A stretch of 64,000 bases of DNA. It comes from an uncultured Pseudohongiella sp. (GTDB lineage: Bacteria > Pseudomonadota > Gammaproteobacteria > Pseudomonadales > Pseudohongiellaceae). Location of the stretch: the NCBI GenBank assembly GCA_902537815.1, contig CACBCS010000001.1, forward strand, positions 19,213-83,212. Reading direction: 5' to 3'. The notes under the pieces were generated by a model. It was not told the DNA's origin. It ran no database searches and saw only the letters and a program-made list of their open reading frames with translations. Within the stretch, counting starts at the first letter, position 1, and each line of letters starts with the position of its first letter. The position numbers and the translations under genes are program-made. This document shows positions 27,824 through 63,803 of the stretch, piece by piece.

Positions 27824-27925
27824 CCTTGCTCTACCGAATTGGAACGTGGGTGTCCGGCTGGATAACCCGACTGAGACGCAAGGCGCGCTAGCGCCGTGGC
27901 CAACTGGATTATATCATCTTGTCTT

Positions 27926-39220: not shown

Positions 39221-39559
39221 GGCGACTCCAGAGATCAGAAGACCCGATTTAAAAAATAGAACCAATACAGTGTGTTAACTAGAGATGAAAGCATACTGCA
39301 TTTAATCGCGCAAATCTATTGGCCGCAAGCATTTTTCATCGTTCTCAGCGGGAATATTTGTGCTGACGCTCTGTCGTTACCGCTGCCCAGTTATTCGTCG
39401 AACGATCGTTCGGTTTTTGTTTCACTCCGCGGTCGGTGGTGGTAACCTTTCGATCCTGTGTTGGCGTGGTTTCAGTGTTGCCAATTTACATCGCAACAAG
39501 CACCGCAATTCCCCCACGCTGCCAATGACTCAAAAATTCCTGGTTTTAGGAGAAACGAC

Positions 39560-40759: not shown

Positions 40760-40816
40760 GTAACAGATTAAGCGGAAGGGGCGGTCACAGGGTCGCCAAT
40801 AGCAGAGGTTTTAAAC

Positions 40817-41950: not shown

Positions 41951-41964
41951 AAACCCCACGTCTG

Positions 41965-42672
41965 ATGAGCGAGCTCGTCTTTGTCCGCCATGGACAAGCT
42001 TCGTTCGGCGCAGCTTCCTACGATGCGCTGAGCGAGCGCGGCTTCGAGCAGGTACGTGAGCTTGCCAGGCACTGGCTGGAAACGGGAGAGTCATTTCAGG
42101 CTATCTACTCAGGGACTCTGCAACGACAAAGAGAAACGGCCGCCGAATTGGCTCCAGTGGTCAAGGATCAGGCCGCGCCGCAGCGCCTGGAATCTCTGAA
42201 TGAATACCATGGCGACCCGCTGATTCATATCTATCTGCGCGATCACGCCGCGCGGGAGGGTGTCGCGCCACCTGACGGGTGGCCGATTAAGGACAACAGA
42301 ACCTTTCAATCGGTCCTAGAAGCCGCCTCCGCCTGCTGGATCCGGGATGAGCTTGAACCTCAGGACTGCGATCAGGGATTCGAATATTGGCGAGACTTCA
42401 AGCAGCGGGTCTACGGGACAGTAGATCAGATTATGGCAGCACACAGCGGCGGCAGCAGGGTTCTTGTGTCAACCTCCGGTGGCGTGATCGCCACAGCGCT
42501 GCAGCGGGTGCTCGGATTTTCCGATCAGCAGGTGATTGCAACCAACTGGATGGTGCACAACAGTTCCGTTACCAAGGTGCGCTACGGGGGTGGCAGAATC
42601 TCTCTGAGCCAATTCAACAGCCTGCCTCATTTAGAGCGCCAGGATAAGCAACATCTGATAACCTACCGCTAA
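41965..42672 (+). CDS. histidine phosphatase (phosphoglycerate-mutase) family protein
   Basis: LVFVRHGQASF (RHG) motif. 235 aa. Confidence 0.8.
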   Translation: MSELVFVRHGQASFGAASYDALSERGFEQVRELARHWLETGESFQAIYSGTLQRQRETAAELAPVVKDQAAPQRLESLNEYHGDPLIHIYLRDHAAREGVAPPDGWPIKDNRTFQSVLEAASACWIRDELEPQDCDQGFEYWRDFKQRVYGTVDQIMAAHSGGSRVLVSTSGGVIATALQRVLGFSDQQVIATNWMVHNSSVTKVRYGGGRISLSQFNSLPHLERQDKQHLITYR

Positions 42673-42701
42673 ACATCCACCAATAATAAGGAAAATAAAG
42701 A

Positions 42702-43781
42702 TTGTCTAGTGTGGACCTGATTGACCGAGCCGGTGATATTCGTGCCGGCGAAGAACTTGATACTGACCGGCTGCGCGATTATCTGGAACCGATACTCGGA
42801 CCCGTGGCAAAAACTCTGGAAGTCACTCAGTTCCCTGGCGGACACTCAAATCTGACGTATCTCTTGTCTGCCGGCAATCAGCGGTGGGTACTGCGGCGTC
42901 CGCCGTTTGGCAGCAAGGTGAAATCAGCCCATGACATGTCCAGAGAGTATCGGATTCTTTCGGCTCTGAAAGATGAGTTTGCCTTCGGGCCTGTGCCGGA
43001 ACATTTCTGCGACGATCACGAGATTATTGGCTGTGATTTTTATCTGATGAACTGCATTGAGGGCCTGGTGATTCGCCGCGAGTATCCTGCCGGCCTTCAG
43101 TTAAGTCCGACTCAGATACGACAGCAGTTGTTGAATTTTTTTGACGTGCTTGCGGATCTCCATTCGGTGGATCTGGTAGCCGCCGGCCTGGACAGCTTCG
43201 GGCGGCCAGAGGGTTATGTGCGTCGTCAGGTTGAAGGCTGGTGTCGCCGCTGGGCCGACTCTGCAACGCCGAATACGGTTGACGTTTACGCCACCATGCA
43301 GTGGCTGCACGACAATATGCCTGCCGAAAGTGGCAAGGCCAGCGTGATTCACAATGATTACAAGCTGGATAATGTGATCTTCAGCGCCGACAACCCGCTT
43401 GAGGTTATCGGCGTGCTGGATTGGGAAATGGCTACTGTCGGAGATCCTCTGATGGACCTGGGCTGTACCTTGGGCTACTGGGTGCAGGTTTCCGATCCGG
43501 ATTTCTTCCGGGAGTCGCGTACCATGCCATCAGACATCGAAGGCGCGCCGACGCGGCGGGAAATTATCCGGAGATTTCAGGAAAAAACTGGCCTCTCTGT
43601 CGACAATTTTCCGTTCTACTTTTGCTTCGGCCTGTTCCGTTTGTGTGTGATCGGCCAGCAGATTTACTATCGCTACTATCACGGGCACACCAAAGATGAG
43701 CGTTTCGCGGGGTTTCTTAAGAAAGCATTCGTGCTCCAGCAGATGTGTGAACTGACTATCAAAGGTGAGGTGACAGACTGA
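42702..43781 (+). CDS. phosphotransferase (APH/choline-kinase-like) family protein
   Basis: 359 aa. Catalytic loop IHNDYKLDNVIF and LDWEMATVGDPLMD. Confidence 0.8.
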   Translation: MSSVDLIDRAGDIRAGEELDTDRLRDYLEPILGPVAKTLEVTQFPGGHSNLTYLLSAGNQRWVLRRPPFGSKVKSAHDMSREYRILSALKDEFAFGPVPEHFCDDHEIIGCDFYLMNCIEGLVIRREYPAGLQLSPTQIRQQLLNFFDVLADLHSVDLVAAGLDSFGRPEGYVRRQVEGWCRRWADSATPNTVDVYATMQWLHDNMPAESGKASVIHNDYKLDNVIFSADNPLEVIGVLDWEMATVGDPLMDLGCTLGYWVQVSDPDFFRESRTMPSDIEGAPTRREIIRRFQEKTGLSVDNFPFYFCFGLFRLCVIGQQIYYRYYHGHTKDERFAGFLKKAFVLQQMCELTIKGEVTD

Positions 43782-44572
43782 TGGGTGTCTCAATTAACGA
43801 GTTATTTAACGTGGCCGGTAAGGTGGCGGTCGTTACCGGAGGGTCGCGAGGCATCGGTCGGATGATCGCCGAGGCGTATGTTCAAAACGGCGTGAAGACC
43901 TACATCACTGCCCGAAAAGAGGCGGCCTGTCAGCAAACGGCGGATGAACTGAACCAAAAAGGAGACTGTGTTGCGCTGCCTGTGGATCTCTCAACGTCGG
44001 AGGGCAGAGAACAGTTTGTTTCCGAAATGAAAGCCCGGGAAAAGAAACTCGATATTCTGGTGAACAACGCCGGCGCTGCCTGGGGTGCTCCATTTGAGGA
44101 ATACCCAGACGAGGGCTATGACAAAGTCATGGAAATCAACGTAAAAGCCATTTTTATGTTAACCCGTGATCTGCTGCCTTTGCTGGAAGAGGGTGCCAGT
44201 CCGGATAACCCCAGTCGAGTGATCAATATCGGTTCCATAGACGGTCTGCGCGTTTCCACTACGGACAACTTCGCTTACGGGGCTAGTAAGGCGGCGGTGC
44301 ACTTTCTGACAAAGAATCTGGCAGTGCGCCTGGCGGGTAAAGGGCTGACCGTGAATGCAATTGCGCCCGGCCCGTTTGAGAGCAAAATGATGGACCATAT
44401 GCTTTCGCAGTTCAGAGATAAAATCGAAGCGGAAAATCCTCTGGGACGGATTGGCAACCCCACAGATATGGGGGGATTGGCCATCTATCTGGCCTCGCCG
44501 GCGACCAGTTACATGACAGGTCAGGTGATCGCGCTGGACGGTGGACGGCAGCTGGGTGCCAGACAAGACTAA
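43781..44572 (+). CDS. SDR family oxidoreductase
   Basis: 263 aa with TGGSRGIG, NNAG and YGASK. Its start overlaps the kinase stop. Confidence 0.9.
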   Translation: MGVSINELFNVAGKVAVVTGGSRGIGRMIAEAYVQNGVKTYITARKEAACQQTADELNQKGDCVALPVDLSTSEGREQFVSEMKAREKKLDILVNNAGAAWGAPFEEYPDEGYDKVMEINVKAIFMLTRDLLPLLEEGASPDNPSRVINIGSIDGLRVSTTDNFAYGASKAAVHFLTKNLAVRLAGKGLTVNAIAPGPFESKMMDHMLSQFRDKIEAENPLGRIGNPTDMGGLAIYLASPATSYMTGQVIALDGGRQLGARQD

Positions 44573-44663
44573 TTGCGCTGAAACCTTCCCAATGATCTCG
44601 GCTTGGTGCTACTGTAGTCTCTGGACTTAGCGCAAACCTCCCACTGTTGGTTGGCAGACTATC

Positions 44664-45320
44664 GTGAGCGACAATTCTTTACCTACCGTTCCCCGTGCCA
44701 TTGTTGCCGCTATGGCGTTCGCCAGCGGCTTCTGCATCATGACAGTGGAAATGCTGGGTGCGCGTATCCTTTCGCCATATTTTGGCGGGAGCCTTTCTGT
44801 ATGGGGCAGCATCATTACAATCTTTATGTTAGCGCTGGCGCTGGGGTATTTGTGGGGTGGCAAACTGTCCGCGCGTAAACCCAGCGCAATAACCTTTGCC
44901 GGATTTTTCATCGGGGCGGCAGTCTTCTCCATTCCCATTATTGTTTTCTCGGATGCGATTATGGAGCCGATTTTTATGGCGCTGGAGGACCCTCGTTATG
45001 GTTCTTTGTTTGCTGCCATATTCCTGTTCTTTATTCCGACGAGTATCCTCGGCATGATTTCGCCTTACGCGGTTCGGCTCATGGTGCAGAACGAAGCCCA
45101 CAGCGGGCAGATGGCGGGTTTACTCTACTTTATCTCTACGCTGGGAAGCGCAGCCGGAACCCTCGGGACCAGTTTTTATTTCGTGCTCTGGTTTGAGGTC
45201 AATCAAATTTTATGGGGTGCTATCTTTACTCTCCTGCTTGCTGGTCTGGTAATACTTGCGGCGCATTATTTCGGGAAGGATAAGAGGGCAGCGCATGCCG
45301 AGGCAGTCAATTGTGCGTAA
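44664..45320 (+). CDS. polytopic membrane protein resembling the membrane module of fused MFS/spermidine-synthase proteins
   Basis: 218 aa, about 6-7 TM. ARILSPYFGGSLSVWGSIITIFMLALALGY block. Confidence 0.55.
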   Translation: MSDNSLPTVPRAIVAAMAFASGFCIMTVEMLGARILSPYFGGSLSVWGSIITIFMLALALGYLWGGKLSARKPSAITFAGFFIGAAVFSIPIIVFSDAIMEPIFMALEDPRYGSLFAAIFLFFIPTSILGMISPYAVRLMVQNEAHSGQMAGLLYFISTLGSAAGTLGTSFYFVLWFEVNQILWGAIFTLLLAGLVILAAHYFGKDKRAAHAEAVNCA

Positions 45321-46212
45321 ATCAATGCTGTTTGTATCTGCGATAAGCGCGCTGTTAAGCAGTGTGCCGGCAGGCGTGGTCGCCGCAGAAACTATCCATG
45401 AGGAGCGCTCCAAATATCGGGATATCACTGTCACTGAGGTTGGGAACAGGCGCTGCTTGCTGTTTAACGTGCATCGGGGTGATCGTAATCAGACCTGTGT
45501 TCTGGTCAATGACAAGCAGCGGCTCGTGTTTGACTACACCCGCATGAGTTTTGCGGGTCTGTTGCTCAATGATCGCCCTGAGAGCATTCTGGTGATCGGC
45601 CTGGGAGGCGGCTCTATTCCTCTGACCTTCGCTGATCTGTTTCCCGACGCCCGGATTGATGTCGTTGAAATCGATGAGGCCGTAGTCAGTGTTGCGGAGG
45701 AATTTTTCTTCTTCGAAGAAACCGAGAATATGGCGGTTTACGTCGATGACGGCCGGCCATTTATCAAGCGAGCAGGAATCAGGCGGGAGAAATATGACTA
45801 CATCGTGCTGGATGCTTTCAGCGGCGATTATATTCCCGAGCACATGCTGACCCGCGAATTTCTGGATGAAGTGAGAAACATCATGCGACCGGAGTCGGTG
45901 CTGGTCGCCAATACCTTCTCAACCAGCAGGCTTTACGATCATGAGTCGGTGACCTATCAGCGAGCCTTTGGTGAGTTCTTTAATTTCAAGTTACCCACCA
46001 CAGGAAACCGGATAATCATTACCCAGCTGGAGCCTTTGCCTCCCAGAGCCCAGCTGGTGGAAAAAGCCCAGTCGTTTGCAGGTCGTTTGGAGAAATACGG
46101 CGTCCCCATCCTCGAGTACCCCTCGAGGCTGTCCACGCGGGTCGATTGGGACATGAGCCGCAGGCAACTCACCGATCAATACGCTCCGGCTAACCTGCTA
46201 CGAGGCAAATGA
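45295..46212 (+). CDS. spermidine-synthase-like SAM methyltransferase-fold protein with N-terminal signal/anchor
   Basis: ILVIGLGGGSIP and VVEIDEAVV SAM-binding motifs, plus DAFSGDYIPEHM. Start uncertain. ORF overlaps the preceding gene in another frame. Confidence 0.65.
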   Translation: MPRQSIVRKSMLFVSAISALLSSVPAGVVAAETIHEERSKYRDITVTEVGNRRCLLFNVHRGDRNQTCVLVNDKQRLVFDYTRMSFAGLLLNDRPESILVIGLGGGSIPLTFADLFPDARIDVVEIDEAVVSVAEEFFFFEETENMAVYVDDGRPFIKRAGIRREKYDYIVLDAFSGDYIPEHMLTREFLDEVRNIMRPESVLVANTFSTSRLYDHESVTYQRAFGEFFNFKLPTTGNRIIITQLEPLPPRAQLVEKAQSFAGRLEKYGVPILEYPSRLSTRVDWDMSRRQLTDQYAPANLLRGK

Positions 46213-46338
46213 GGGTCTGTCCCCGCCTTTGATGGCTTTTTGGGGTGCGGGACCGCTTTATGAGTCGGGATCACTGAATTCAACAATGCTGCCTGACACC
46301 TTAGCCAAACAGCAGCTGGCGGCACGGTCATCGTGACG

Positions 46339-47487
46339 TTAAGAAAAATCCCGCATCATGTTCCGAGCGATAATGACCTGCTGAATCTGGCTGGTTCCCT
46401 CGTAAAGCCTGAACAGACGCACGTCCCGGTAGAAGCGCTCTACCGCATATTCAGACATATAGCCAGCTCCTCCATGGATCTGAACTGCGCGATCCGCGAC
46501 GCGGCCGACCATTTCAGTGGCAAACAGCTTGCAGGCAGAAGACTCGGTGCTCACGTTCTCTCCGCTGTCGCGTTTTCTGGCGGTTTCAAGGGTCATGCAT
46601 TTCGCGGCGTAGGTCTCAGTCTGTGAGTCTGCCAGCATGCCCTGTATCAGTTGTTGTTCAGCAATTGGTTTGCCAAATTGTTTGCGCTGCAGAGCGTATT
46701 CAAGCGAGTCGTGAATCAGTCGCTCAGCGACGCCTACGCTCACGCCGGAAATGTGCAGGCGGCCCCGGTCCAGAACTTTCATCGCTGTCACGAAGCCTTC
46801 ACCCTCCTCTCCGATCAGATTTTCGGCGGGCACCCTGCAGTCCTCAAAAATTACATCACAGGTCATGGAGCCGGCTTGCCCCATTTTTTTGTCTACTGAG
46901 CCAAGGGTAATTCCCGGGGTTTCCCGCTCAACGATGAAAGAAGAGATGCCCCTCGCTCCCTTATTGTCCGGGTCGGTCCGCGCCATCACGTTGAAGGTGT
47001 GTGCAACCTTAGCATTGGTGATATAGCGTTTGGTTCCGTTCAGAACATAATGATCGCCATCCCTGACCGCGGCGGTTTTCAGTGAGGCGGCATCAGAACC
47101 GGCTTCCGGTTCCGTGAGACAAAAGCAGGAGATCCATTCGCCTGAGGCGTATTTCGGCAGATACTTCTGCTTTTGTTCCTCTGTGCCATTAAACACCACT
47201 GCCGCAGAGCCGATGCCGTTGTTCGTTCCCATGATGGAGCGAAAAGCGGGGGATGTTCTTCCCAGGGCGATGGAAACCAGGATTTCCTCTTCCATGGTCA
47301 GGCCGAGACCGCCGTACTCTTCCGGAATGGTGAGCCCGAAGAGTCCCAGAGCTTTCATCTCTTCGAGAATGTCGTCAGGTAGCCTGCCTTCGGTAGCCAG
47401 ACGCTCTTCATTAGGTACAAGTCTCTCCCTGACAAAGCGTTCAATCAGATCGACAAGCTGCTTAATTGTTTCCTGATCCCTGATCAT
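46339..47487 (-). CDS. acyl-CoA dehydrogenase (canonical short/medium-chain type)
   Basis: 382 aa. CLTEPEAGSD and canonical LYEGTSQIQ. Confidence 0.9.
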   Translation of the reverse strand: MIRDQETIKQLVDLIERFVRERLVPNEERLATEGRLPDDILEEMKALGLFGLTIPEEYGGLGLTMEEEILVSIALGRTSPAFRSIMGTNNGIGSAAVVFNGTEEQKQKYLPKYASGEWISCFCLTEPEAGSDAASLKTAAVRDGDHYVLNGTKRYITNAKVAHTFNVMARTDPDNKGARGISSFIVERETPGITLGSVDKKMGQAGSMTCDVIFEDCRVPAENLIGEEGEGFVTAMKVLDRGRLHISGVSVGVAERLIHDSLEYALQRKQFGKPIAEQQLIQGMLADSQTETYAAKCMTLETARKRDSGENVSTESSACKLFATEMVGRVADRAVQIHGGAGYMSEYAVERFYRDVRLFRLYEGTSQIQQVIIARNMMRDFS

Positions 47488-47730
47488 GTAGACCCCCTTT
47501 TTTCGGTGCGGCTAAACTACCACAGCCGCAGGTTTTATGCGACTTTGGCCCCGATTTGCGGGCCTGCGCGCCTATGCTAGAATGCCGGCAGATCGGCGCT
47601 GCGGCGCAAATTCAGGTTACCACATGGGTGCCCAAGCCTGTGGTTCCCGCTATACACAAACTGTACTCAGGTAATTCGTCCTGGGTTATCAATCCCGCCA
47701 CGCTCAATCGACAAATAAAAAGAGTACGAG

Positions 47731-48951
47731 ATGTCTGAAACTGCCTTAACCGATGCGTTTATCTACGACGGCATCAGAACGCCCTTCGGGCGCCATGCAG
47801 GTGCCCTTGCGCCGGTCCGACCAGACGATCTTTTGGCTCATGTCATCAGAACGGTAGTCGAAAAAAATGATTTCCCGAAGGAAGCCTTTGAGGATGTTAT
47901 TGCCGGTAACACAAACCAGGCCGGAGAAGATTGCCGGAATGTTGGACGCTTTGCGTCGCTGCTTGCAGGGATGCCCGTTGAGGTTGGCGGACTGACGGTT
48001 AACCGACTGTGTGCCTCCGGCCTGGCGGCGACCCTGCACGCTGCGAATTCGGTGAAAATACGCGAAGGAGAACTGTTCGTGGCAGGCGGCGTGGAATCTA
48101 TGAGCCGCGCTCCCCTGGTGTTGTCCAAGGCGCACGGGCCTTATGACCGTGGTCAATCACTGGCAGACAGTACTCTGGGCGCCCGATTTACCAACCCCGC
48201 CTTCGCTGCCGGGTTTGGTAATGACACGATGCCGGAAACAGCAGACAACATCGCGTCGGACGTCGAGATTTCCCGGGGAGACAGCGACCGCTTTGCTGCG
48301 GCTTCTCAGGCGAAATATGAAGCCGCGCGCGCGGACGGTTTTTTTGCAAATGAAATAGTTGCCATCGATGTGCCCCAGGGAAGAAAAAAACCGCCAGTTT
48401 CCGTCGCCACGGACGAGCACCCCCGGCCCCAAACCACGCTTGAATCATTGTCCGGACTGCGAACGCTGTTCGATAACGGTGTCGTTACCGCTGGGAATGC
48501 CTCAGGGATCAATGACGGAGCTGCCGCACTGATAGTTGGGAGTCGTGAAGTAGGTGAGCGCTATGGAGTCAAACCCAGGGCTCGCATCGTGGCGGGCGCG
48601 GTCGCCGGTGTCGAGCCCCGGGTGATGGGTTTTGGTCCGGTCTTTGCGATTCAGAAAGCCCTCGGGCGAGCGAGCCTGCGGCTGTCGGATATGGACATTA
48701 TTGAAATCAACGAAGCCTTCGCCTCCCAGGTGCTTGGCTGTCTCAAGTTGCTTGATGTTGATTTTTCGGATTCACGCGTTAATCCCAATGGCGGTGCCAT
48801 TGCCGTCGGACATCCTCTTGGTGCTTCTGGTGCGCGGATTGCCCTGACGGCCATGCGGCAGCTGGAACGGAGCGGTGGGCGCTATGCGGCCATCAGTCTG
48901 TGTATCGGTATCGGTCAGGGGTTGGCGGCAATTCTGGAACGAGTTGACTGA
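47731..48951 (+). CDS. acetyl-CoA C-acyltransferase (thiolase)
   Basis: 406 aa. NRLCASGL active-site Cys, and NPNGGAIAVGHPLGASG / CIGIGQG C-terminal motifs. Confidence 0.9.
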   Translation: MSETALTDAFIYDGIRTPFGRHAGALAPVRPDDLLAHVIRTVVEKNDFPKEAFEDVIAGNTNQAGEDCRNVGRFASLLAGMPVEVGGLTVNRLCASGLAATLHAANSVKIREGELFVAGGVESMSRAPLVLSKAHGPYDRGQSLADSTLGARFTNPAFAAGFGNDTMPETADNIASDVEISRGDSDRFAAASQAKYEAARADGFFANEIVAIDVPQGRKKPPVSVATDEHPRPQTTLESLSGLRTLFDNGVVTAGNASGINDGAAALIVGSREVGERYGVKPRARIVAGAVAGVEPRVMGFGPVFAIQKALGRASLRLSDMDIIEINEAFASQVLGCLKLLDVDFSDSRVNPNGGAIAVGHPLGASGARIALTAMRQLERSGGRYAAISLCIGIGQGLAAILERVD

Positions 48952-48982
48952 AATACTTTCATTTAAAAAGTAAGGAATAAAT

Positions 48983-51094
48983 ATGTCGGAAGTTGTGAGT
49001 TATCAGCTAAAGGAAAACATTGGTGTCATTGTGGTAAGCAGCCCACCGGTAAATGCGCTGTCGCAATCTGTGCGTGTAGGAATTCTTGACGCTGTCAATC
49101 AGGCGCAGGAGGACAGCTCAGAGGCAATCGTGCTGCGCTGTGATGGTCGTACCTTCATTGCTGGCGCCGACATCAGTGAGTTCGGTCAGCCGCCAAAGGT
49201 ACCCGGGCTGCCCGAGGTCCTTTCGGCGATAGAAAACTCAAGTAAGCCGGTGATCGCGGCAATTCATGGCACTGCCCTCGGAGGTGGATTTGAAGTTTCT
49301 CTGGCCTGTCACTATCGCTGCGCGATTGCTTCAGCGAAAGTGGGTTTGCCAGAGGTCAAATTGGGTCTTCTTCCGGGTGCTGGCGGAACGCAGCGAGTAC
49401 CCCGGCTTGCGGGTGTCAAGGCAGCCCTGGACATGATAACCGGAGGTAATCCAATTTCTGCCGCCAAGGCCAAAGACATGGGGCTGATTGATGAAGTGCT
49501 GACTGGCGAGGATGTGGAGAGCAGTGCGATCGCCTATGCGCAGGAATCGCAGCGAACAGGTGCGCCTCTGAAACGTGTACGCGACATTACGATCGACCCA
49601 GCCACAGTGGAGGCTGGATTCTTTGATGAAGCCAGAGCCCGGTTGGCAAAACGGGCACGCGGGCAGATCGCGCAAGACCGCATTGTTTCCTGTCTGGAGG
49701 CCGCGGTGAGTCTGCCAATGGATGAAGGTTTGGCAAGAGAGCGTGAATTATTCGGCGAACTGGTGACATCTCCTGAGTCAGCGGCAATGCGCCACATATT
49801 CTTCGCGGAGCGTCTGGCTGCCAAGATCAAGGACCTGCCGAAAGATACGGCCACCAGAGACATCAGGAAAGTGGCTATTATCGGTGGTGGCACAATGGGT
49901 GGAGGCATCGCCATGTGCTTTGCCGGAGCTGGCATACCGGTGGTGCTGGTTGAGGTTGATGACGAGGCGCTGGAGCGTGGTCTTGGCATTATCCGCAAGA
50001 ATTACTCCATAACCGTACAGAAGGGCAAACTCAGCGAAGACAAGATGGAGCAGCTGATCAGCACGATCAGTGGTACGACCAGCTATGACGACATTGCTGA
50101 TGTGGATCTGGTCATTGAGGCAGTGTTTGAAAACCTGGACCTCAAAAAAGAAATCTTCGCGAAACTCGATTCGGTCTGCAAGGCCGGAGCCATTCTTGCA
50201 ACTAACACGTCCTATCAGGATGTCGATGCGATTGCTGCGGCGACGGGTCGGCCTGAGGATGTTGTTGGGATGCATTTCTTTTCCCCTGCCAATGTCATGA
50301 AGCTGCTGGAAGTGGTTCGGGGAGACCGAACCGCAGACGATGCTCTGGCAACGGCCATGGCGATTGGCAAGAAAATCGGCAAAGTGTGTGCGCTGTCAGG
50401 CGTATGCTACGGGTTTATCGGTAATCGGATGCTTGGCGGCTATGGCAGGGAGGCGCAGATGTTGTTGCTTGACGGCTGCCCGCCGGCGCAGGTCGATTCC
50501 GCCCTGGAGAAATTTGGTATGGCGATGGGTCCACTGGCTATGGGCGATCTTGCGGGTCTCGACGTGGGGTACAAAGCAAGACAGGCGCGGACGGATCTGC
50601 CTGATGACCCGAAGCTTTATCGCATGGGCACTTTACTGGTCGAAATGGGGCGCTTTGGCCAGAAAACCGGTTCAGGATTCTATACCTATGATCCCGAGAC
50701 CCGCCGCCGTCAGTCGGATCCCCAAATAGAATCACTGATCAAGACGGAAGCCGCTAAGCTGGACGTTGAGCAACGCGATGTGACAGAGGATGAAATTCTG
50801 GCCCGCTGTTTCTATCCCCTCATCAATGAAGGAGCGAAAATTCTTCAAGAAGGCATTGCGCAACGGCCCAGCGACATCGATGTGGTGTATGTATTTGGCT
50901 ATGCCTTTCCGGTCGCCAAAGGTGGGCCGATGTTCTACGCAGACCAGGTTGGTCTGAAAAATGTGTATGACAAAATTTGCGAGTTTCGTGACCGCTACGG
51001 TGAGCAGTACTGGCAACCCGCACCGCTGCTTGAACAGCTGGCAAAAGAAGGTAAGACTTTTGCTGAATGGGACAGAGAAAGGAGTCTGGCGTAA
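48983..51094 (+). CDS. bifunctional enoyl-CoA hydratase / 3-hydroxyacyl-CoA dehydrogenase (FadB/FadJ-like)
   Basis: 703 aa. Crotonase N-terminus (AAIHGTALGGGFE) and HACD Rossmann fold (VAIIGGGTMGGGIA). Confidence 0.9.
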   Translation: MSEVVSYQLKENIGVIVVSSPPVNALSQSVRVGILDAVNQAQEDSSEAIVLRCDGRTFIAGADISEFGQPPKVPGLPEVLSAIENSSKPVIAAIHGTALGGGFEVSLACHYRCAIASAKVGLPEVKLGLLPGAGGTQRVPRLAGVKAALDMITGGNPISAAKAKDMGLIDEVLTGEDVESSAIAYAQESQRTGAPLKRVRDITIDPATVEAGFFDEARARLAKRARGQIAQDRIVSCLEAAVSLPMDEGLARERELFGELVTSPESAAMRHIFFAERLAAKIKDLPKDTATRDIRKVAIIGGGTMGGGIAMCFAGAGIPVVLVEVDDEALERGLGIIRKNYSITVQKGKLSEDKMEQLISTISGTTSYDDIADVDLVIEAVFENLDLKKEIFAKLDSVCKAGAILATNTSYQDVDAIAAATGRPEDVVGMHFFSPANVMKLLEVVRGDRTADDALATAMAIGKKIGKVCALSGVCYGFIGNRMLGGYGREAQMLLLDGCPPAQVDSALEKFGMAMGPLAMGDLAGLDVGYKARQARTDLPDDPKLYRMGTLLVEMGRFGQKTGSGFYTYDPETRRRQSDPQIESLIKTEAAKLDVEQRDVTEDEILARCFYPLINEGAKILQEGIAQRPSDIDVVYVFGYAFPVAKGGPMFYADQVGLKNVYDKICEFRDRYGEQYWQPAPLLEQLAKEGKTFAEWDRERSLA

Positions 51095-52131
51095 TGCTGT
51101 CGTATCAAACCGGAGCGCCGGGTACCCCGTTACTTGAGGTTGAATCAGAAACCCCTGCACCCACCGGGACAGAGGTGCTGATAAAGACTGTTGCTTGTGG
51201 AGTCTGCCATTCAGATATTCACCTCCATGACGGCAGATTCGAACTTGGTGGAGGCAAGGTGCTGAATGTTGGCCGTGAAGGGCATGTGCTTGGGCATGAA
51301 ATTTTCGGGGAAGTGGTCGCAGTCGGACCGGATGCGCAGGACGCTGCTGTGGGGGACCGCCGGGTCGTCTACCCATGGATAGGCTGCGGTGAATGCGCGG
51401 TGTGTCAGCGTGGTGAGGAGCACCTGTGTACCCCGGGTCGGGCTCTGGGCATTGTGGCTGCAGGTGGTTTCGCCACACATGTGCTGATACCCCACAGTCG
51501 CTACTTGTTCGACAAAGGAGCGGTGCCGGACGCGTTGGCAGCCACCTATGCCTGTTCAGGGCTGACAGCCTATGGCGCGATCAAAAAGCTGGGCAAGCTG
51601 AACCCGGCAGACGAGGTGGTCATCATCGGTGCCGGGGGCGTCGGGATGATGGCGATTCAGATAGCCAGGGCGTTGGGAATTGATCCGATTGTCGTTGACA
51701 TTGACCCAGCGAAACTTGAAGCAGCCCAACGACTGGGTGTGACGCGCACCTACGACTCATCAGATATAGATTCTGCGAAAACAATTCGAAAGGCGAACGG
51801 CGGGGTTTATGCTGCGCTGGATTTTGTCGGTGCAGAATCCAGTGTTAATTATGGGCTCGCTACGCTGCGCAAAGGAGGCATGCTGCTTGTCGTCGGTCTG
51901 TTTGGCGGTGCACTGAGCTTGCCTATCCCTTTTCTGCCAATGAACGCCCGGGTGATTCAGGGCAGCTATGTGGGCAGTCCTGAGGACATGGCGGAGCTGA
52001 TGATGATGGTGCGTGAGGGCAAGATAGCGCCCATCGACATCCAGGAGCGTCCGCTCTCCGAGGCCAGTTTTGCCCTGGCAGACTTAAAACAAGGTAAAGT
52101 GAAAGGCCGGCAGGTTCTGATAGTAGACTGA
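51094..52131 (+). CDS. zinc-dependent alcohol dehydrogenase family protein
   Basis: GVCHSD, GHE and CGECAVC zinc sites, plus GAGGVG. ATG overlaps the upstream TAA by 1 nt. Confidence 0.85.
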   Translation: MLSYQTGAPGTPLLEVESETPAPTGTEVLIKTVACGVCHSDIHLHDGRFELGGGKVLNVGREGHVLGHEIFGEVVAVGPDAQDAAVGDRRVVYPWIGCGECAVCQRGEEHLCTPGRALGIVAAGGFATHVLIPHSRYLFDKGAVPDALAATYACSGLTAYGAIKKLGKLNPADEVVIIGAGGVGMMAIQIARALGIDPIVVDIDPAKLEAAQRLGVTRTYDSSDIDSAKTIRKANGGVYAALDFVGAESSVNYGLATLRKGGMLLVVGLFGGALSLPIPFLPMNARVIQGSYVGSPEDMAELMMMVREGKIAPIDIQERPLSEASFALADLKQGKVKGRQVLIVD

Positions 52132-52154
52132 ATGTTCCAAAAAGGAGAAAAGCA

Positions 52155-53384
52155 TTGCTAGCATTAGAGCAATTCCGGGATTCAACCCGTGTCTGGCTGG
52201 AGGAGAACTGTCCTCCCAGTATGCGTACCCCCATGGTGCCGGAAGAAATTGTGTGGGGCGGTCGTAATGCGGACTTTACCAATCCCGAAAGCAAGCTCTG
52301 GCTGGACAGGATGGCCGAGAAAGGCTGGACCTGCCCAACCTGGCCTGCCGAGTACGGTGGCGGAGGTCTGAGTAGCGAAGAGGCGAAAATACTCGCTGAA
52401 GAGTTGGCGCGCATCAATGCGCGCATCGCCTTGACCAGTTTTGGCATCAGCATGCTTGGACCAGTACTGCTGGAATACGGCACTCACGAGCAGAAAATGG
52501 AGCATATTCCCAAAATAATCCGCGGTGAGATCCGCTGGTGCCAGGGATACTCGGAACCAGGTTCCGGTTCAGATCTGGCCAGTCTGGGTACCAAAGCGAC
52601 TCTTGAGGGCGATGAGTACGTTGTTAACGGCTCAAAAGTCTGGACTTCCTATGCGGATAAAGCCGACTGGATATTTTGTCTGGTTCGAACGGATTTTGAG
52701 GTCCCCAAGCATTCCGGCATCAGTTTTCTGCTGTTCGACATGAAGAGTGAAGGGGTCAGCACGAAACCGATTCAGCTCATCAGTGGCTCCTCTCCATTCT
52801 GTGAAACGTTCTTTGATGACGTGCGGGTGCCGGCCGCGAATCTGATGGGCAGGCTGAATGAAGGCTGGTCCATTGCCAAGCGTCTGCTACAGCACGAGAG
52901 AACCATGATTTCCGGATTCGGGCTGGCCAGCGGGCAGGGCGATCGCGGCGGAACCACTTCCACGACTGCGAGTCTGGAGGGGGCTGCCATGCATTACAGA
53001 GAGGATAAGGATCGCCTCACTGATCCTGCTCTGCGTGATCAGATTGCTCAATTTAAGATTGACAGTGAAGCCTTTGCGCTAACTTCGCAGCGTTCCAGCG
53101 AAGAGAGTAAGCAGGGTGGGCCGAATGCGACTTCCTCTATGCTAAAATATTACGGCTGTGAGCTCAATAAGCGACGGTACGAGCTTTTCCTTAAGGCAAT
53201 GGGGAGCCAGGGGCTTGGCTGGGAAGGAGACGAGTTTGAGGCAGAAGAGCTGCAGGTTACCCGTGAGTGGTTGCGCTCCAAAGCCAATTCTATCGAGGGC
53301 GGGACGGCTGAAGTCCAGCTGAACATTGTGGCTAAACGTGTTCTCGGGCTGCCGGACATGATGAGTCTCGCCGGTAAGAAATAG
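52155..53384 (+). CDS. acyl-CoA dehydrogenase family protein (pair 2, first subunit)
   Basis: 409 aa, paralogous to 39560..40759 (KGW..PTWP.EYGG, YSEPGSGSD). The C-terminus SIEGGTAEVQ retains the Glu. Confidence 0.85.
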   Translation: MLALEQFRDSTRVWLEENCPPSMRTPMVPEEIVWGGRNADFTNPESKLWLDRMAEKGWTCPTWPAEYGGGGLSSEEAKILAEELARINARIALTSFGISMLGPVLLEYGTHEQKMEHIPKIIRGEIRWCQGYSEPGSGSDLASLGTKATLEGDEYVVNGSKVWTSYADKADWIFCLVRTDFEVPKHSGISFLLFDMKSEGVSTKPIQLISGSSPFCETFFDDVRVPAANLMGRLNEGWSIAKRLLQHERTMISGFGLASGQGDRGGTTSTTASLEGAAMHYREDKDRLTDPALRDQIAQFKIDSEAFALTSQRSSEESKQGGPNATSSMLKYYGCELNKRRYELFLKAMGSQGLGWEGDEFEAEELQVTREWLRSKANSIEGGTAEVQLNIVAKRVLGLPDMMSLAGKK

Positions 53385-53391
53385 GAATAAA

Positions 53392-54546
53392 GTGGTTATG
53401 GCGATGGTATTGAGTGAAGACCAACAGCTGCTCAGAGATTCAGCCAGGAGTTTCTGTCAGGACAACGCACCGATCTCAGTGATGCGTCGCCTCAGAGACG
53501 GGAAATCAGAGCTTGGCTACGACGAAGCCATCTGGCAGCAAATGATCGAGCTTGGATGGCCGGGAATGGCAATTGCTGAAAAGTATGGAGGCTTTGAATT
53601 TGGCTACACCGGACTCGGTCTGGTTCTGGAAGAAACCGGCCGTACCCTTGCCAGTTCACCTCTTATAGCTTCGGTTCTTTTGGGTGCCAGTCTGTTGTCT
53701 GAAGCGGGTGATGAAGAGAAAAAGTCCCAGCTCCTCCCTCAAATTGTTAATGGTAAACTGCGTCTGGCTGTCGGTGTTGATGAGGGACCGCATCACAATC
53801 CGTCGCGAGTCGCATGCACAGCGATAAAGCAAGGCGCCGAATATGTGCTCACCGGAGCGAAAAGCTTTGTCCTTGACGGCCACATTGCAGGCAAACTGAT
53901 TGTTGCTGCGCGTACATCCGGTGAACCGGGCTCAGAGAACGGAATCAGCCTGTTTTTGCTGGAAGCGGGCTGTCAGGGCCTGCAGATTCAGAGAACCCAA
54001 ATGGTAGACAGTCGCAATGCGGCCAATCTGGTGCTGGATCAGGTCCGGATCTCTGAAGATTCTCTGCTCGGTTCGGAAGGAGCGGGATTTACGGCTTTGG
54101 ATGCTGCGCTGGATATTGCGCGTATCGGGGTTGCCTCAGAGATGCTTGGCAGTGTGCAGGAGGTTTTCCAGCGCATTGTTGAGTATCTGAAACAGCGGGA
54201 GCAGTTCGGCGTGCAGATCGGTGCGTTTCAGGCGCTGCAGCATCGGGCGGCTGAGATGTACAGTGAGATTGAACTCTGTAAATCGGCAGTTCTCGGCGCT
54301 TTGCGATGTCTGGACAATTCTTCGGCTACCGCGAAAGACCGTGCCCGCATGGCCAGTCTCGCGAAAGCGAAACTGAGTGAAGTCTCAGAAAGAGTCAGCA
54401 ACGAAGGGATTCAGATGCATGGCGGCATCGGAATGACCGATGAATTTGATATCGGTTTTTTTCTGAAGCGGGCAAGAGTGGCACAGCAGTTTCTGGGTGA
54501 CGCCTCCTTCCATCGCGACCGTTACGCAACGCTGCATAATTTCTGA
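53392..54546 (+). CDS. acyl-CoA dehydrogenase family protein (pair 2, second subunit, degenerate C-terminal motif)
   Basis: 384 aa with ACAD fold (IQMHGGIGMTDE). C-terminus QQFLGDASFHRD lacks the YEGT Glu. Confidence 0.85.
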   Translation: MVMAMVLSEDQQLLRDSARSFCQDNAPISVMRRLRDGKSELGYDEAIWQQMIELGWPGMAIAEKYGGFEFGYTGLGLVLEETGRTLASSPLIASVLLGASLLSEAGDEEKKSQLLPQIVNGKLRLAVGVDEGPHHNPSRVACTAIKQGAEYVLTGAKSFVLDGHIAGKLIVAARTSGEPGSENGISLFLLEAGCQGLQIQRTQMVDSRNAANLVLDQVRISEDSLLGSEGAGFTALDAALDIARIGVASEMLGSVQEVFQRIVEYLKQREQFGVQIGAFQALQHRAAEMYSEIELCKSAVLGALRCLDNSSATAKDRARMASLAKAKLSEVSERVSNEGIQMHGGIGMTDEFDIGFFLKRARVAQQFLGDASFHRDRYATLHNF

Positions 54547-59567: not shown

Positions 59568-60584
59568 TCAGGGCAGCTCATTCTCGAAAAAAATGGCAAG
59601 ACGGAGGCCGGCCAGCCCGAGCCTCTGGCGGGAAATATTCTGCATCAGGGCGACATAGACGTCGTCCAGTGTTTGGCCGGAAAGACCGGTGTTGCTACTT
59701 TCAGCGTCAAGAATCGCTTCGCGCAGATCTGCGGGATAAACAGATGTCTGCAGAATGCTCCGGCTTTCGTTCATCCAGGCCGTCCAGTCGCTTTCAACGC
59801 CCTGAATCGTCGGCCTTGAAAATCCGGTGACCCGTGAAACAAGAATTGGCAGCTCCTGGCTGACTCCGCTCGCAGTCAGCGCCCTGTCCCAACGGGCATG
59901 CAGGTTGCCGTCGCCGATCCGGATTGCGTTTCCCCCTCTGTCTCCGGTCTCGAACAGAGAAGCGGTATAAAGCGAACCGGTATGCAAGGGCTGGTGAATG
60001 TCACCGATAAGATGCAGCACCCAGCACAAGGCGATTGCGCGCGCCGGCGCCGGTGCGGAAGCGTTGCTTAGCACCGACGCGTTGTAGTCAATGCCGGTAA
60101 CCACATTGGATACCTTCTCTTCGCTGTCTACCCCGCCTCGGTCGATGCCATCAACGTCGGCGAACGCGTCGATGTCCAGATAGACATTGCCCTGGAAGGG
60201 TGCCGAGTCTCTGATCCAGGCGCCGTCGGTGTAGTGCCATGAAGGGCGGTTGTATCGTGCGCGTTCCTCAACAGGCAGGCCGCGGGCAATGTCTGGCCAG
60301 AATGCGGCCTGACCAAGCAGCCACTGCGTCATCTGCTCTTCGTTATCGCGATCAATGTAGCCCGGCATCTGATCAATGAAGTCCTGCTGATAGCGAGGGT
60401 GCGCTCGCAAGATGCGCATTAATTCAGCAGCAGTGTCCGGTTCCATGAATTCCAGCGCCACTGCAGCGCTGAGCCGGTGGCCCACCGAATCCCAGGCAAG
60501 CGCAGGGACGCCCCAACTGAGGAATATCAGGAGTAGCGGTGGAAGCAGCCGGATACGAATTGAACGTGTCAGTTGCCGAGTCAT
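59568..60584 (-). CDS. secreted S1/P1-type nuclease
   Basis: Signal peptide then AWDSVGHRLSAAVA. HLIGDIHQPLH zinc-binding motif. Start taken at the internal ATG so it does not overlap the thiolase. Confidence 0.75.
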   Translation of the reverse strand: MTRQLTRSIRIRLLPPLLLIFLSWGVPALAWDSVGHRLSAAVALEFMEPDTAAELMRILRAHPRYQQDFIDQMPGYIDRDNEEQMTQWLLGQAAFWPDIARGLPVEERARYNRPSWHYTDGAWIRDSAPFQGNVYLDIDAFADVDGIDRGGVDSEEKVSNVVTGIDYNASVLSNASAPAPARAIALCWVLHLIGDIHQPLHTGSLYTASLFETGDRGGNAIRIGDGNLHARWDRALTASGVSQELPILVSRVTGFSRPTIQGVESDWTAWMNESRSILQTSVYPADLREAILDAESSNTGLSGQTLDDVYVALMQNISRQRLGLAGLRLAIFFENELP

Positions 60585-60633
60585 TCTGGGTTCCCGGGAG
60601 CTGTGGGTGCAAAAGCACCCACGGCAGGCCGCT

Positions 60634-61818
60634 TTAGTAAACTTCGAAAAGTCCGGCAGCACCCATGCCCCCGCCAACGCACATGGTGCAGACGACGTAT
60701 TTCGCCCCCCGGCGCTTACCCTCGATCAGTGCGTGACCGACCATGCGGGCGCCACTCATACCGTACGGGTGGCCAATTGAAATCGCGCCACCATTAACAT
60801 TCAGCAGTTCATTGGGTATCCCCAGTTCGTCCCGGCAGTAGATTACCTGCACGGCAAATGCTTCATTCAGCTCCCACAGGCCAATGTCGTCCATGGACAG
60901 ATTGAAGCGCTCCAGCAGTGTCGGGACGGCTTTAACCGGGCCAATGCCCATTTCATCAGGTTCGACTCCGGCAACTGCCATGCCACGATAGGCACCGAGC
61001 GGTTTCAGGCCTTTCTGCTCGGCCAGTTTGCTGTCCATCACTACGGAAGCAGAGGCACCATCAGACAGCTGGCTGGCATTTCCCGCGGTAATAACCCCAC
61101 CCTCGAATACCGGCTTCAATCCGTTCAGCCCTTCAAGGGTCGTTGTGGGTCGGTTGCCTTCGTCTTTTTCGAGATGAACATCGTGGACGCTCTGCTCTTT
61201 GGTTTCTTTGTCAACGAAGACCATTTTCGAATGCAGAGGTGCGAGTTCTGCATCGAAGGCACCTGCCTGCTGAGCGGAGGCGGTCCGCTGCTGACTTTGC
61301 AGCGCGTATTCGTCCTGCTGCTCGCGGCTGATTTTGTAGCGCTTGGCGACAACCTCGGCAGTCTCCAGCATCGACATATAAGCGTGCTCGGACTTATCAG
61401 TGACGCTGGGGCTTTGTGCGCGGAAGCCATTGCGATGTTCGTTCTGCACCAGACTGATAGTGTCCAGCCCTGCTCCGATCACAATGGGCATGTTGTCATT
61501 GACGACCTGCTTGGCGGCAGTACAGATTGCCATCATGCCCGATGCGCACTGTCGATCTATGCTCATGCCTGAGACTGAGCTCGGCAGCCCTGCTGCAACA
61601 GCTGCCGTTCTGCCGATGTTGTAGCCTGATGTGCCTTGCTGCATGGCGCAGCCCATGATGACGTCATCGACCTCACCCGGCTCGATCCCTGCCCGGCGGA
61701 CTGCTTCAGCAATCACGTGGCCGCCAAGTGTGGGGGCGTCGGTATCATTGAAAGCCCCTCTGTAGGCTCTGCCGATAGGTGTTCTTGCGGTTGCTACGAT
61801 TACTGCTTCTTTTGTCAT
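60634..61818 (-). CDS. acetyl-CoA C-acyltransferase (thiolase)
   Basis: 394 aa. DRQCASGM active-site Cys, and [17 protein letters not shown] / CVGGGMG motifs. Confidence 0.9.
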
Positions 61819-61833: not shown

Positions 61834-62355
61834 CTAATTTTCGACCACGAGTTGCAAGACCTGCTCTATCGCATTTCTGGCCAATTCTTTCATCTCCTCA
61901 TCCGTCCTGTCCTGAATAGGATGCGGAACGAATACGCTTTTAGGGTGGATGCCCAGGGAATTTCCCTGCGCTTCTGCTGCCTGTATAAATTCAGCAGAGG
62001 CAACGAATCCGGCGGGAATGCCGCGACTTTCAAGATCCATGATGTCATGCAAACTGCACGAGGTACATGAGCCTCAGTCGGCCAACCCTTCAATGACGGC
62101 ATCGCATTCACTGCTGATCCGCTGGTAAAGCTCTTTGGGTGCCACACGAGCGAATGTCGGCTTGGCGTACCTGAGTACTGTCGCCCCCAACGCTTCAAGT
62201 TCGACCTGGACCTCATCGAGAAATTCCTTGCCGCGTGGTTTGGAAATATCCAACAGGCCAACGGTTGTTTCACGTAGTGTGTCCAGGCGAGGCAGAAGTT
62301 GCCGTTCCGCCGGACTGTGTTCGCTGGTCGGGTCCAGCATCGTCATAGTGCTCAT
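61834..62355 (-). CDS. UGSC-type selenoprotein, UGA (62074-62076) read as selenocysteine; 173 aa
   Basis: Two same-frame ORFs are separated only by TGA plus 7 sense codons. The junction reads ...EGLAD-U-GSCTSCSLHD... (UxxCxxC). The downstream half lacks its own ATG/GTG and RBS. selD is present in the window. Confidence 0.75.
62045..62070 (-). promoter_or_regulatory. candidate SECIS hairpin 3' of the UGA (hand-folded)
   Basis: mRNA +7..+13 UCAUGUA pairs with +26..+32 UGCAUGA. A small apical loop CGUGC lies about 17-21 nt after UGA. Confidence 0.3.
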
Positions 62356-62366
62356 TTGAGTCTCCG

Positions 62367-63803
62367 TTATTGAATGCGTTGAGAGACAAGTTGACTGCCT
62401 CTTTCTCCGGAAGCCACCCAGCCGCTGATGATGGCCGAAAACATGCCGGCCGTGCCGCCAGCAGTAACAATGTGCAGGCCATCGTCCCGGAATTTGCTCA
62501 GTAATTTGTCTTTCAGTCTGTCCGGCATGCCTTCTGCGATGCCGCCGGTCCCGCTGACGAGATCAGCGCCCGGGGTAACCAGTTCGTCGTGAATGGCCTG
62601 CAGTAAATCCTGCTTGTGCCATCCGTTCGTTCGCAGCACCTGTCTGTGTTCGGGGCAGACCACAAGCACGGCATCAGCCAGACCGAACTTTTTGACATGT
62701 ACGACGGATCGCAGGCTGGAAGCCATGCTTTTCGCCAACGATTCAGGAGTCCGCGACAGCTGATCCAGAATGGGCTGCACGCCGTCACCCGCGAACAGGC
62801 TGACTACGGATTCCTCGCGCGAGTATCCCTGATCCATGGCAAGTGTAGACCACGCGTCATCTGACTCATCTTCCGCAAAGCAAAAGGTGTATTTGCCGGG
62901 ATTTCCGAGGGTCGCCCGGTCGATGCCGCCGGGTTTGCCGCCACCGACATTTCTGATCAGCAACTGGAGAGCTCTGCCGATGGTTGCATTGGCGCGGTTG
63001 CCCTGACCCAGTGCATTGCCCCCTGAATTCATGCCGATATGTCTGCTTTCAGGACCGTTAACGATAACAACAGGTGATGAGAAATAGGTGGTACACAGCA
63101 GGCCATGCATGCAGAAGCGATCCTGCAGTGCAGCTCTCACAACGGCAACGACGGTCGGGAAATATTCGGGCTTACAACCGGCCATGACGGCATTGATCGC
63201 CACTTTCTCGACGCTGCAGGGGATGTTGTCCGGTGGCACGATGCCGATCAGCTCATCGGCTTCCAGTTCGGTTCCGGCCAGCATTCGCATGACCCGCACA
63301 GGCGTCGGCGGAACGACAGGCAGGCCGTCTGACCAACCGCGGTCGAAGCAGGCTTCCATGTCGTCTTCAGCGTTGGCAAGCTGGATACGTCGTGCTTTGA
63401 GTTTTTGACTGTTAAATTTGGCGGCCAGCTTTTCAGCCATTCCGGGGTCTTCGGTCAGAGAGCCGCAACCCGGTTTGAAATCGATGAGCTCGGCTCCAAG
63501 CTCGGGAATGCCGGTAAAGTCCTGCCACTGCTGCTTGTCCCAACCGACGATGCGCTGTTCGTCTTCATCATGGCGGATCAGGGTTGGCACGATCTCTATG
63601 TTCTGCCGGTAGGATTGTTCTAACTCGCCGTCGTCAATCCGCTGGGCAATCCCTTCGAGGAAAGACATGTCGTCCTGAATATAAACAGACAGTCGACTGC
63701 CGAGGTGTTCGGACAGCAGTTTGGCGACAGGCCCGATCAGTTCACAAGTCGGGCAGGATTTTTTCAAGAAAAGCGAGTAGCTGGCGGCAGTTGATGAAGG
63801 CAT
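62367..63803 (-). CDS. thioredoxin-fold (CPTC) domain fused to a large domain of unknown function
   Basis: 478 aa. N-terminus LFLKKSCPTCELIGPV...VPTLI resembles a Trx-like CxxC fold. I cannot assign the remainder (GWSDGLPVVPPT, NATIGRALQLLIRNVGGGKPGG). A GGAG RBS and an 11-nt spacer lead to the selenoprotein gene. Confidence 0.6.
   Translation of the reverse strand: MPSSTAASYSLFLKKSCPTCELIGPVAKLLSEHLGSRLSVYIQDDMSFLEGIAQRIDDGELEQSYRQNIEIVPTLIRHDEDEQRIVGWDKQQWQDFTGIPELGAELIDFKPGCGSLTEDPGMAEKLAAKFNSQKLKARRIQLANAEDDMEACFDRGWSDGLPVVPPTPVRVMRMLAGTELEADELIGIVPPDNIPCSVEKVAINAVMAGCKPEYFPTVVAVVRAALQDRFCMHGLLCTTYFSSPVVIVNGPESRHIGMNSGGNALGQGNRANATIGRALQLLIRNVGGGKPGGIDRATLGNPGKYTFCFAEDESDDAWSTLAMDQGYSREESVVSLFAGDGVQPILDQLSRTPESLAKSMASSLRSVVHVKKFGLADAVLVVCPEHRQVLRTNGWHKQDLLQAIHDELVTPGADLVSGTGGIAEGMPDRLKDKLLSKFRDDGLHIVTAGGTAGMFSAIISGWVASGERGSQLVSQRIQ

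Follow-up and report, generated by a model that had tools for sequence, protein, structure and literature searches.

The DNA analysed here (the window) is a 64,000-nucleotide stretch of contig CACBCS010000001.1 (positions 19,213 to 83,212), assigned to an uncultured Pseudohongiella sp. On its minus strand, positions 61834..62355 hold what is very probably one gene, encoding a UGSC-family selenoprotein of 173 residues, in which an in-frame UGA is read as selenocysteine (Sec). The upstream of two open reading frames (ORFs) at this locus (62355..62074) starts with ATG at 62355 and runs for 93 codons to the TGA at 62076..62074. Past the TGA the frame remains open for 79 more codons, up to a TAG at 61836..61834, giving a read-through product of 93 + 1 + 79 = 173 residues. 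Seven sense codons (GGC TCA TGT ACC TCG TGC AGT, 62073..62053) lie between the TGA and the internal TTG at 62052 that opens the downstream ORF. The peptide across the UGA position reads ...EGLAD-U-GSCTSCSLHDIMDLESR, and the motif context in the joined product is ...AVIEGLAD-U-GSCTSCSLHDIMDLESRG..., i.e. ...EGLAD-U-GSCTSCSLHD.... The features of the gene are listed below.

62362..62365, minus strand: GGAG Shine-Dalgarno sequence, 6 nt before ATG 62355, read from the sequence
61834..62355, minus strand: complete gene of the putative UGSC-family selenoprotein, 173 codons plus TAG, Sec at codon 94; from translation, hidden Markov models (HMMs) and tblastn across the stop (80 loci)
62074..62076, minus strand: in-frame UGA, proposed Sec codon (residue 94); TGA in 80/80 related and five distant Sec-form loci, Cys in 24/28 homologues
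62056..62076, minus strand: codons of the redox motif U94-G-S-C97-T-S-C100 (UxxCxxC), invariant in 81/81 sequences
62032..62075, minus strand: two-tier hairpin resembling a selenocysteine insertion sequence (SECIS), beginning at the UGA itself, with a weak and variable lower helix; from RNAfold
62045..62061, minus strand: apical stem-loop UCGUGCA-GUU-UGCAUGA of 7 bp, its stem starting 12 nt after the UGA and its loop opening with G-U

A first-pass annotation, made from the sequence alone, had proposed this read-through gene, and its ORF coordinates, TGA, seven intervening codons, TTG and 173-aa product all agree with our reading of the sequence. It had further held that the internal TTG leaves no room for a ribosome-binding site; no Shine-Dalgarno-like sequence was found in the 21 nt preceding TTG 62052, and the ATG is served by GGAG. 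ORFs split by a TGA are common in this DNA. With an upstream part of at least 50 codons from the first start codon and a downstream part of at least 60 codons, a script counted 41 same-frame pairs in the six frames of the window, which has a G+C content of 54.6%. The ORF geometry is therefore not significant by itself, and the case, as read from sequence, stands on homology and conservation. None of the nine longest pairs besides the UGSC gene had domain support across its TGA. One of the other candidates carried an MreD match, which fell wholly downstream of its TGA, and it was rejected as having no selenoprotein support.

The joined product was searched with Cys replacing the stop (U→C). It scored 145.9 bits against the NCBIfam model NF041046, "UGSC family (seleno)protein" (curated cut-off 125; residues 30–169), and 147 bits against Pfam PF24696, "UGSC family" (cut-off 25; residues 6–170 of 173), the latter match spanning both halves. 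These scores bear out the family assignment made in the first-pass annotation. With HMM scores above the cut-offs, U94-G-S-C97 at the conserved column and a single domain of 173 residues, the protein has the features of UGSC membership. The "UGSC-containing protein" appeared in the literature in 2007, with Hyphomonas neptunium as another carrier, under the description "a selenoprotein of unknown function" (PMC1976440). An analysis of the Global Ocean Sampling (GOS) data then placed UGSC, with a UxxC motif and at that time no Pfam family, among the most abundant selenoprotein families, with 255 Sec and 21 Cys forms (PMC2398784). In reviews of 2022 and 2026 it remains uncharacterised and is by then linked with NF041046 (PMC9312934, PMC13188914); the prediction that it is a selenoprotein, together with its SECIS elements, is already in print (PMC1976440, PMC2398784, PMC13188914). 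The window gene resembles the published family (NF041046, PF24696; PMC1976440, PMC2398784) in its size (~175 aa), in U/C-G-S-C at the same column, in its scores above the cut-offs, in the prevalence of Sec forms in marine and aquatic bacteria, in the SECIS hairpin after the UGA and in gene fusion links to the "Unknown_1" domain. We found no essential difference, and the gene is a regular member of the family in a Pseudohongiella-like gammaproteobacterium. The first-pass annotation thus recognised, correctly, a family that had already been catalogued, and the recoding itself is not new. A literature search pairing Pseudohongiella or OM182 with selenocysteine returned nothing relevant.

A scan of the GTDB set, one genome per species, returned 80 loci, mostly labelled Pseudohongiella, Pseudohongiellaceae, OM182 or unclassified Gammaproteobacteria, in which tblastn matches cross the stop at 63–97% identity. 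Each locus was examined with a pattern that permitted Cys as well as a stop at the codon in question. All 80 have TGA there, followed by the invariant G-S-C-T-S-C-S-L-H-D and 78–86 open codons, and the same arrangement recurs in five distant Sec-form loci (L083, L085, L086, L087 and L089). Among the 28 aligned database homologues (40–59% identity), 24 have Cys at this column (...SDCGSCTSC...); of the remaining four, two have W, one has R and one diverges locally in sequence. The column comparison that the first-pass annotation had called for therefore came out as TGA in every close and five distant loci and Cys in most homologues. Full-length database relatives measure 170–187 aa, whereas the closer relatives are represented by truncated "hypothetical proteins" of ~95 aa. 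In one locus (L045), a 486-codon open frame upstream of Sec was considered as a possible fusion and rejected, the partner gene described below lying in another frame. A pseudogene, or a sequencing error in which a Cys codon TGC or TGT was mutated to or misread as TGA, requires a change of one base only. Identical TGA codons in 80 independent assemblies and single-cell genomes, together with a proportion of nonsynonymous differences (pN) well below that of synonymous differences (pS) downstream, leave this explanation effectively refuted.

When the window gene was compared with ten diverged loci by the Nei-Gojobori method, synonymous differences were saturated (pS 0.64–0.88), with a pN of 0.12–0.36 upstream of the TGA and 0.08–0.21 downstream. 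Both halves are under purifying selection, and the low pN against saturated pS beyond the TGA shows that the downstream half is translated in this frame. An in-frame UGA aligned with Cys is here combined with a downstream frame under purifying selection, the pattern expected of a bacterial selenoprotein gene. The alternative is that the TGA is a true stop, with a 93-aa protein followed by a separate small gene of 72–79 codons translated from TTG 62052 or by re-initiation. This would suit the public gene callers, which annotate two ORFs, and the standing of TGA as the commonest stop in the window. It is contradicted by the codons for GSCTSCS between the TGA and the TTG, which are invariant at the protein level in 81 sequences and part of the family motif. 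The TTG has no ribosome-binding site, the Cys homologues and the fusion proteins continue unbroken across the TGA position, and the family HMMs require both halves. We consider termination at this TGA very unlikely. Splitting of the gene by routine callers, which the first-pass annotation had anticipated, is seen in the public calls, which pair ORFs of 98+71, 95+74, 99+71, 98+73 and 98+77 aa.

The hairpin that begins at the UGA was predicted by RNAfold with a minimum free energy of −14.2 kcal/mol (z = −1.5) in a 47-nt segment and −23.5 kcal/mol (z = −2.2) in a 70-nt segment. With the U of UGA as position 1, positions 16–22 of the apical stem pair with 26–32 around the loop G23-U24-U25. Of 81 sequences, 80 share the 20 nt TCGTGCAGTTTGCATGACAT without a change. 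In the codon alignment, mean synonymous codon entropy falls to 0.08–0.2 bits at codons 97–106, against ~1.5 bits along the gene, and the six-fold Ser and Leu codons over the hairpin are fixed as TCG, AGT and TTG. RNAalifold retrieved the 7-bp apical stem from the alignment. In an 18-sequence alignment, the basal helix and apical stem pair in 91.7% of cells, against 20–50% when the 3′ partners are slid, and every substitution alters one side of a pair and leaves it paired (G·U to G-C, A-U to G·U).

Equivalent hairpins stand at the same distance from the UGA in the distant Sec-form lineages, whose partner proteins (described below) are 36–54% identical to that of the window: CGUGCA-GUG-UGCACG in L083, GUCGUGCA-GUG-UGCACGAC in L085 and L086, ...UGCAUGAC in L087 and GUCGUGC(G)-GUC-(U)GCACGAC in L089. 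The apical loop is GUU, GUG or GUC across all lineages. Conservation beyond coding need, position and the G-U start of the loop support the hairpin as a candidate bacterial SECIS. The features of the hairpin agree with the bacterial SECIS consensus, for which the bSECIS model, reportedly that of Zhang and Gladyshev (2005), was the basis of comparison. Like the bacterial SECIS of the E. coli fdhF type, it is a stem-loop within the coding sequence shortly after the UGA, with an apical loop that begins 19 nt after the UGA and opens with G-U, and with a constraint that overlaps coding. It differs in its very small apical loop (3 nt as folded), and its stem is a near-palindrome partly dictated by the codons UGC-AGU-UUG-CAU and free of covariation; binding of SelB would follow by analogy. 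In the Cys-form locus L081 (5001..5546), the codons at the SECIS apex are UGC UCG ACG CAU, not UGC AGU UUG CAU, and the G-U loop is absent, which fits the frozen codons of the Sec forms serving an RNA element and not the protein. The codons GCC GAC immediately 5′ of the UGA (62077..62082, minus strand) also show reduced synonymous entropy (0.66 and 0.42 bits, 81 sequences), which points to an influence of the upstream context on recoding or to a part in the basal helix.

Elsewhere in the window TGA is an ordinary stop, as the first-pass annotation had stated. It ends 23 of 50 long, mostly family-supported ORFs, more than any other stop, including gatA (4373..5833) and a ThiF/MoeB-type gene (813..1565). 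The organism uses the standard code, and recoding of UGA is context-dependent. The selD gene noted some 35 kb away was found as part of a fusion gene.

24592..26850, minus strand: Ndh-SelD fusion (pyridine-nucleotide-disulfide oxidoreductase-SelD); TIGR03169 420.1 bits, TIGR00476 (selD) 284.5 bits

The oxidoreductase forms the N-terminal part of this fusion, and the SelD active site is of the Cys type (C-A-G-C-G-A-K). Ndh-SelD fusions are reported to be common in marine samples in the GOS paper (PMC2398784). SelD alone could serve selenouridine or Se-cofactor pathways as well; the conservation of TGA in 80/80 loci is the stronger, though indirect, argument for Sec.

P0001, the nearest Cys homologue of full length, was modelled with AlphaFold together with 23 relatives. 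The model (predicted local distance difference test score (pLDDT) 89.4, predicted template-modelling score (pTM) 0.84) has five beta-alpha units in a flavodoxin-like arrangement, and it places the C-G-S-C motif where strand 3 gives way to the N-terminus of helix 3, a typical site for a redox-active pair. Foldseek searches of the PDB gave generic flavodoxin-like matches (lumazine synthase, flavodoxin, MttC; TM score ~0.5), with no thioredoxin among the 50 best matches listed. The UGSC profile had no match at E ≤ 1 among PDB sequences. The thioredoxin-like fold suggested for UGSC in the 2008 paper (PMC2398784) is thus unsupported by this flavodoxin-like model, a 59%-identical proxy, and by the listed Foldseek matches.

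The first-pass annotation had also likened the motif to that of selenoprotein B, and this resemblance stands in part. The protein shares UxxCxxC at residues 94–100 and a weak C-terminal similarity with the selenoprotein B group (GrdB, GrdF, GrdH, PrdB), and four NCBIfam models of this type gave weak matches (E 7e-5 to 8e-3, 15–22 bits). These remain below threshold: TIGR01917 (GrdB) scored 21.9 bits against a cut-off of 602.2 (E 7e-5), aligning residues 67–168 with profile positions 323–418 of 431, and TIGR01918 scored 18 bits against 65.45. By offset, U94 falls near GrdB profile position 350, at about which we take the Sec of GrdB to lie. In contrast to selenoprotein B, the window protein has 173 aa instead of ~430 and no counterpart of the large N-terminal part of GrdB; no grdA, grdE, prdA or other Grd/Prd families were found at any locus examined, and the window lineage is marine and presumably aerobic, not a Stickland fermenter. 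The Sec-bearing module of UGSC is, on these alignments, at most a distant homologue of GrdB and not a member of its family.

Directly upstream of the UGSC gene lies a gene that accompanies it throughout.

62367..63803, minus strand: conserved partner gene, 478 aa, with a thioredoxin (Trx)-fold CPTC domain and an unannotated domain of ~340 aa; the gene ends 8 nt ahead of the UGSC start

All 80 close loci have a partner homologue immediately 5′ of the UGSC gene. In the distant loci, both the Cys-form L081 and the Sec-form L083, L085, L086, L087 and L089, a partner of 473–511 aa overlaps the UGSC start by 4 nt; these partners have no Pfam domain and are 36–54% identical to that of the window, and every neighbour other than the partner differs there. 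The window's partner had no Pfam or NCBIfam match above threshold, only weak thioredoxin-like matches at the N-terminus. In its AlphaFold model (mean pLDDT 58.9), residues ~5–120 are confident and the rest is poorly modelled; the N-terminus superposes on thioredoxins (TMt ~0.6) and carries CPTC. Foldseek and a PDB profile search found no PDB relative of the C-terminal domain (C-domain), whose conserved motifs are GWSDGLPxVPPTPxRV, AxNAVMAGCxPEY, GxRANAxIGRALRL, PEH and VAGGxGxHS.

The partner family is very large. A phmmer search of 1.84 billion representatives with the partner gave 5508 clusters (50% identity) at E ≤ 1e-3, including many stand-alone versions of the C-domain of 340–370 aa and forms of ~710 aa with two or three matching stretches. 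In P0229, an AhpC/redoxin-type N-terminus replaces the Trx-like one. In fusions of ~540–560 aa, a Cys-type UGSC region precedes the partner C-domain; P0338 was confirmed by family scan, and P0354 and P0362 have a CGSC motif at the matching position. These fusions of UGSC with the C-domain argue that the two window genes act together, and they are presumably the "UGSC/Unknown_1" fusions of 2008. The pairing with the partner is one addition to the picture of UGSC in the literature.

Downstream of the UGSC gene, the neighbourhood is specific to the lineage.

60634..61818, minus strand: acetyl-CoA C-acyltransferase (thiolase); TIGR01930 416.7 bits, Thiolase_N and Thiolase_C

The thiolase gene begins 15 nt after the UGSC stop, behind its own GGAG, and is found downstream in 72 of the 80 close loci and not in the distant ones. 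It is probably co-transcribed with the UGSC gene in this lineage. Beta-oxidation-type genes are abundant in the window (39458..54546), with a FadJ-like gene (48983..51094), a 3-oxoadipyl-CoA-thiolase-like gene (47731..48951) and pimeloyl-CoA-dehydrogenase-like genes at 39458..40759 and 52155..53384. Acyl-CoA genes (enoyl-CoA hydratase, acyl-CoA synthetase or dehydrogenase) are neighbours of the module in L083 and L086 too. These neighbourhoods are no more than suggestive of a possible tie between the UGSC module and acyl-CoA metabolism. Four other ORFs, 59568..60677 (minus strand), 22683..23804 (plus), 27002..27823 (minus) and 27896..29002 (plus), encode 369, 373, 273 and 368 aa and had no NCBIfam match at E ≤ 1e-5. 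The first of these, from its TTG start as listed, overlaps the thiolase 3′ end by 44 nt and is found downstream in 6/80 loci.

Gene structure, family membership, the TGA/Cys column, conservation, the hairpin, gene pairing and fusions being direct observations, we propose the following course for expression and activity. The ribosome would start at ATG 62355 behind GGAG and, at the UGA at 62076..62074, would insert selenocysteine without terminating. By analogy with characterised bacterial selenoprotein mRNAs, decoding would depend on SelB, with the apical stem-loop (62061..62045) binding SelB-GTP-Sec-tRNASec, and elongation would proceed 79 codons past the UGA to the TAG. The product is predicted to fold as a flavodoxin-like domain of five beta-alpha units, in which Sec94 occupies the N-terminal end of helix 3. 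Sec94 may cycle with Cys97 and/or Cys100 via a selenenylsulfide, as a redox or nucleophilic centre. The Trx-fold CPTC domain of the partner could re-reduce this centre, and the ~340-aa unannotated domain of the partner probably holds the substrate site. A more far-reaching proposal is that UGSC and its partner form an uncharacterised two-subunit selenoenzyme, widespread in marine heterotrophs. Its Sec part would be distantly akin to GrdB/PrdB-type enzymes of reductive C-X bond cleavage, the Trx-like domain would recycle the selenenylsulfide and the C-domain, with its MAGC, PEH and RANA motifs, would bind the substrate. We offer this enzyme only as a tentative and rather doubtful possibility.

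Several observations weigh against recoding by Sec or against parts of this proposal. P0002 (L090 333..848; 58% identical; on a 930-nt metagenome contig) has a real TGG (Trp) at the Sec column. The 64-kb window contains no tRNA gene, hence no tRNA-Sec, and neither selA nor selB was found among the 22 window ORFs scanned against NCBIfam, all ORFs of about selA or selB size included. The single-sequence z-scores of the hairpin (−1.5 and −2.2) are modest, and its conservation is partly forced by the conserved peptide C-S-L-H-D. Covariation analysis of the 18-sequence alignment revealed no compensatory double changes, because the apical stem is nearly invariant, and support for the hairpin therefore rests on the frozen synonymous sites. 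Rfam searches of the window at gathering thresholds and of 61950..62150 at E ≤ 10 returned no SECIS family; a lncRNA match in these searches was dismissed as chance. The structural model is that of P0001, a proxy 59% identical to the window protein. According to the reviews, Sec incorporation in the UGSC family is without biochemical demonstration (PMC9312934, PMC13188914). For the functional part of the proposal, the redox cycle and the role of the partner are what we infer from these comparisons.

Some of these observations would also suit a reading of the UGA by a near-cognate or suppressor tRNA, for example one for Trp or Cys, in place of the Sec machinery: the Trp codon TGG occupies the Sec column in the related 930-nt contig, and selA, selB and selC were not seen within the window. 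Near-cognate read-through leaves unexplained the frozen hairpin, its canonical SECIS distance and the G-U start of its loop. TGA has been kept in 80 species though a one-base change gives Cys or Trp, selD is present in the window, and the pairing of Sec with Cys at one column is typical of selenoproteins. The probability that a tRNA of this kind decodes the UGA is in our view very small, and we retain selenocysteine insertion in a single UGSC gene with high confidence.

As to the variants at the Sec column, the W of P0002 was considered as a TGA translated under another genetic code, which was rejected since the DNA reads TGG. This TGG is one transition away from TGA. At the protein level, P0003 shows W and P0005 shows R. 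The W and R residues of P0002, P0003 and P0005 may reflect errors, inactive proteins or genuine forms without redox activity.

For annotation, the locus is a textbook example of how routine gene calling breaks up or shortens a selenoprotein gene. Halves of ~95 aa and ~72 aa are numerous in public databases, and once they are joined the proteome of this abundant marine lineage (Pseudohongiella/OM182) is put right. UGSC, still uncharacterised, ranks among the most abundant of the selenoprotein families predicted from ocean metagenomes. Its strict pairing, and occasional fusion, with a large unannotated Trx-bearing family provides a concrete experimental handle.

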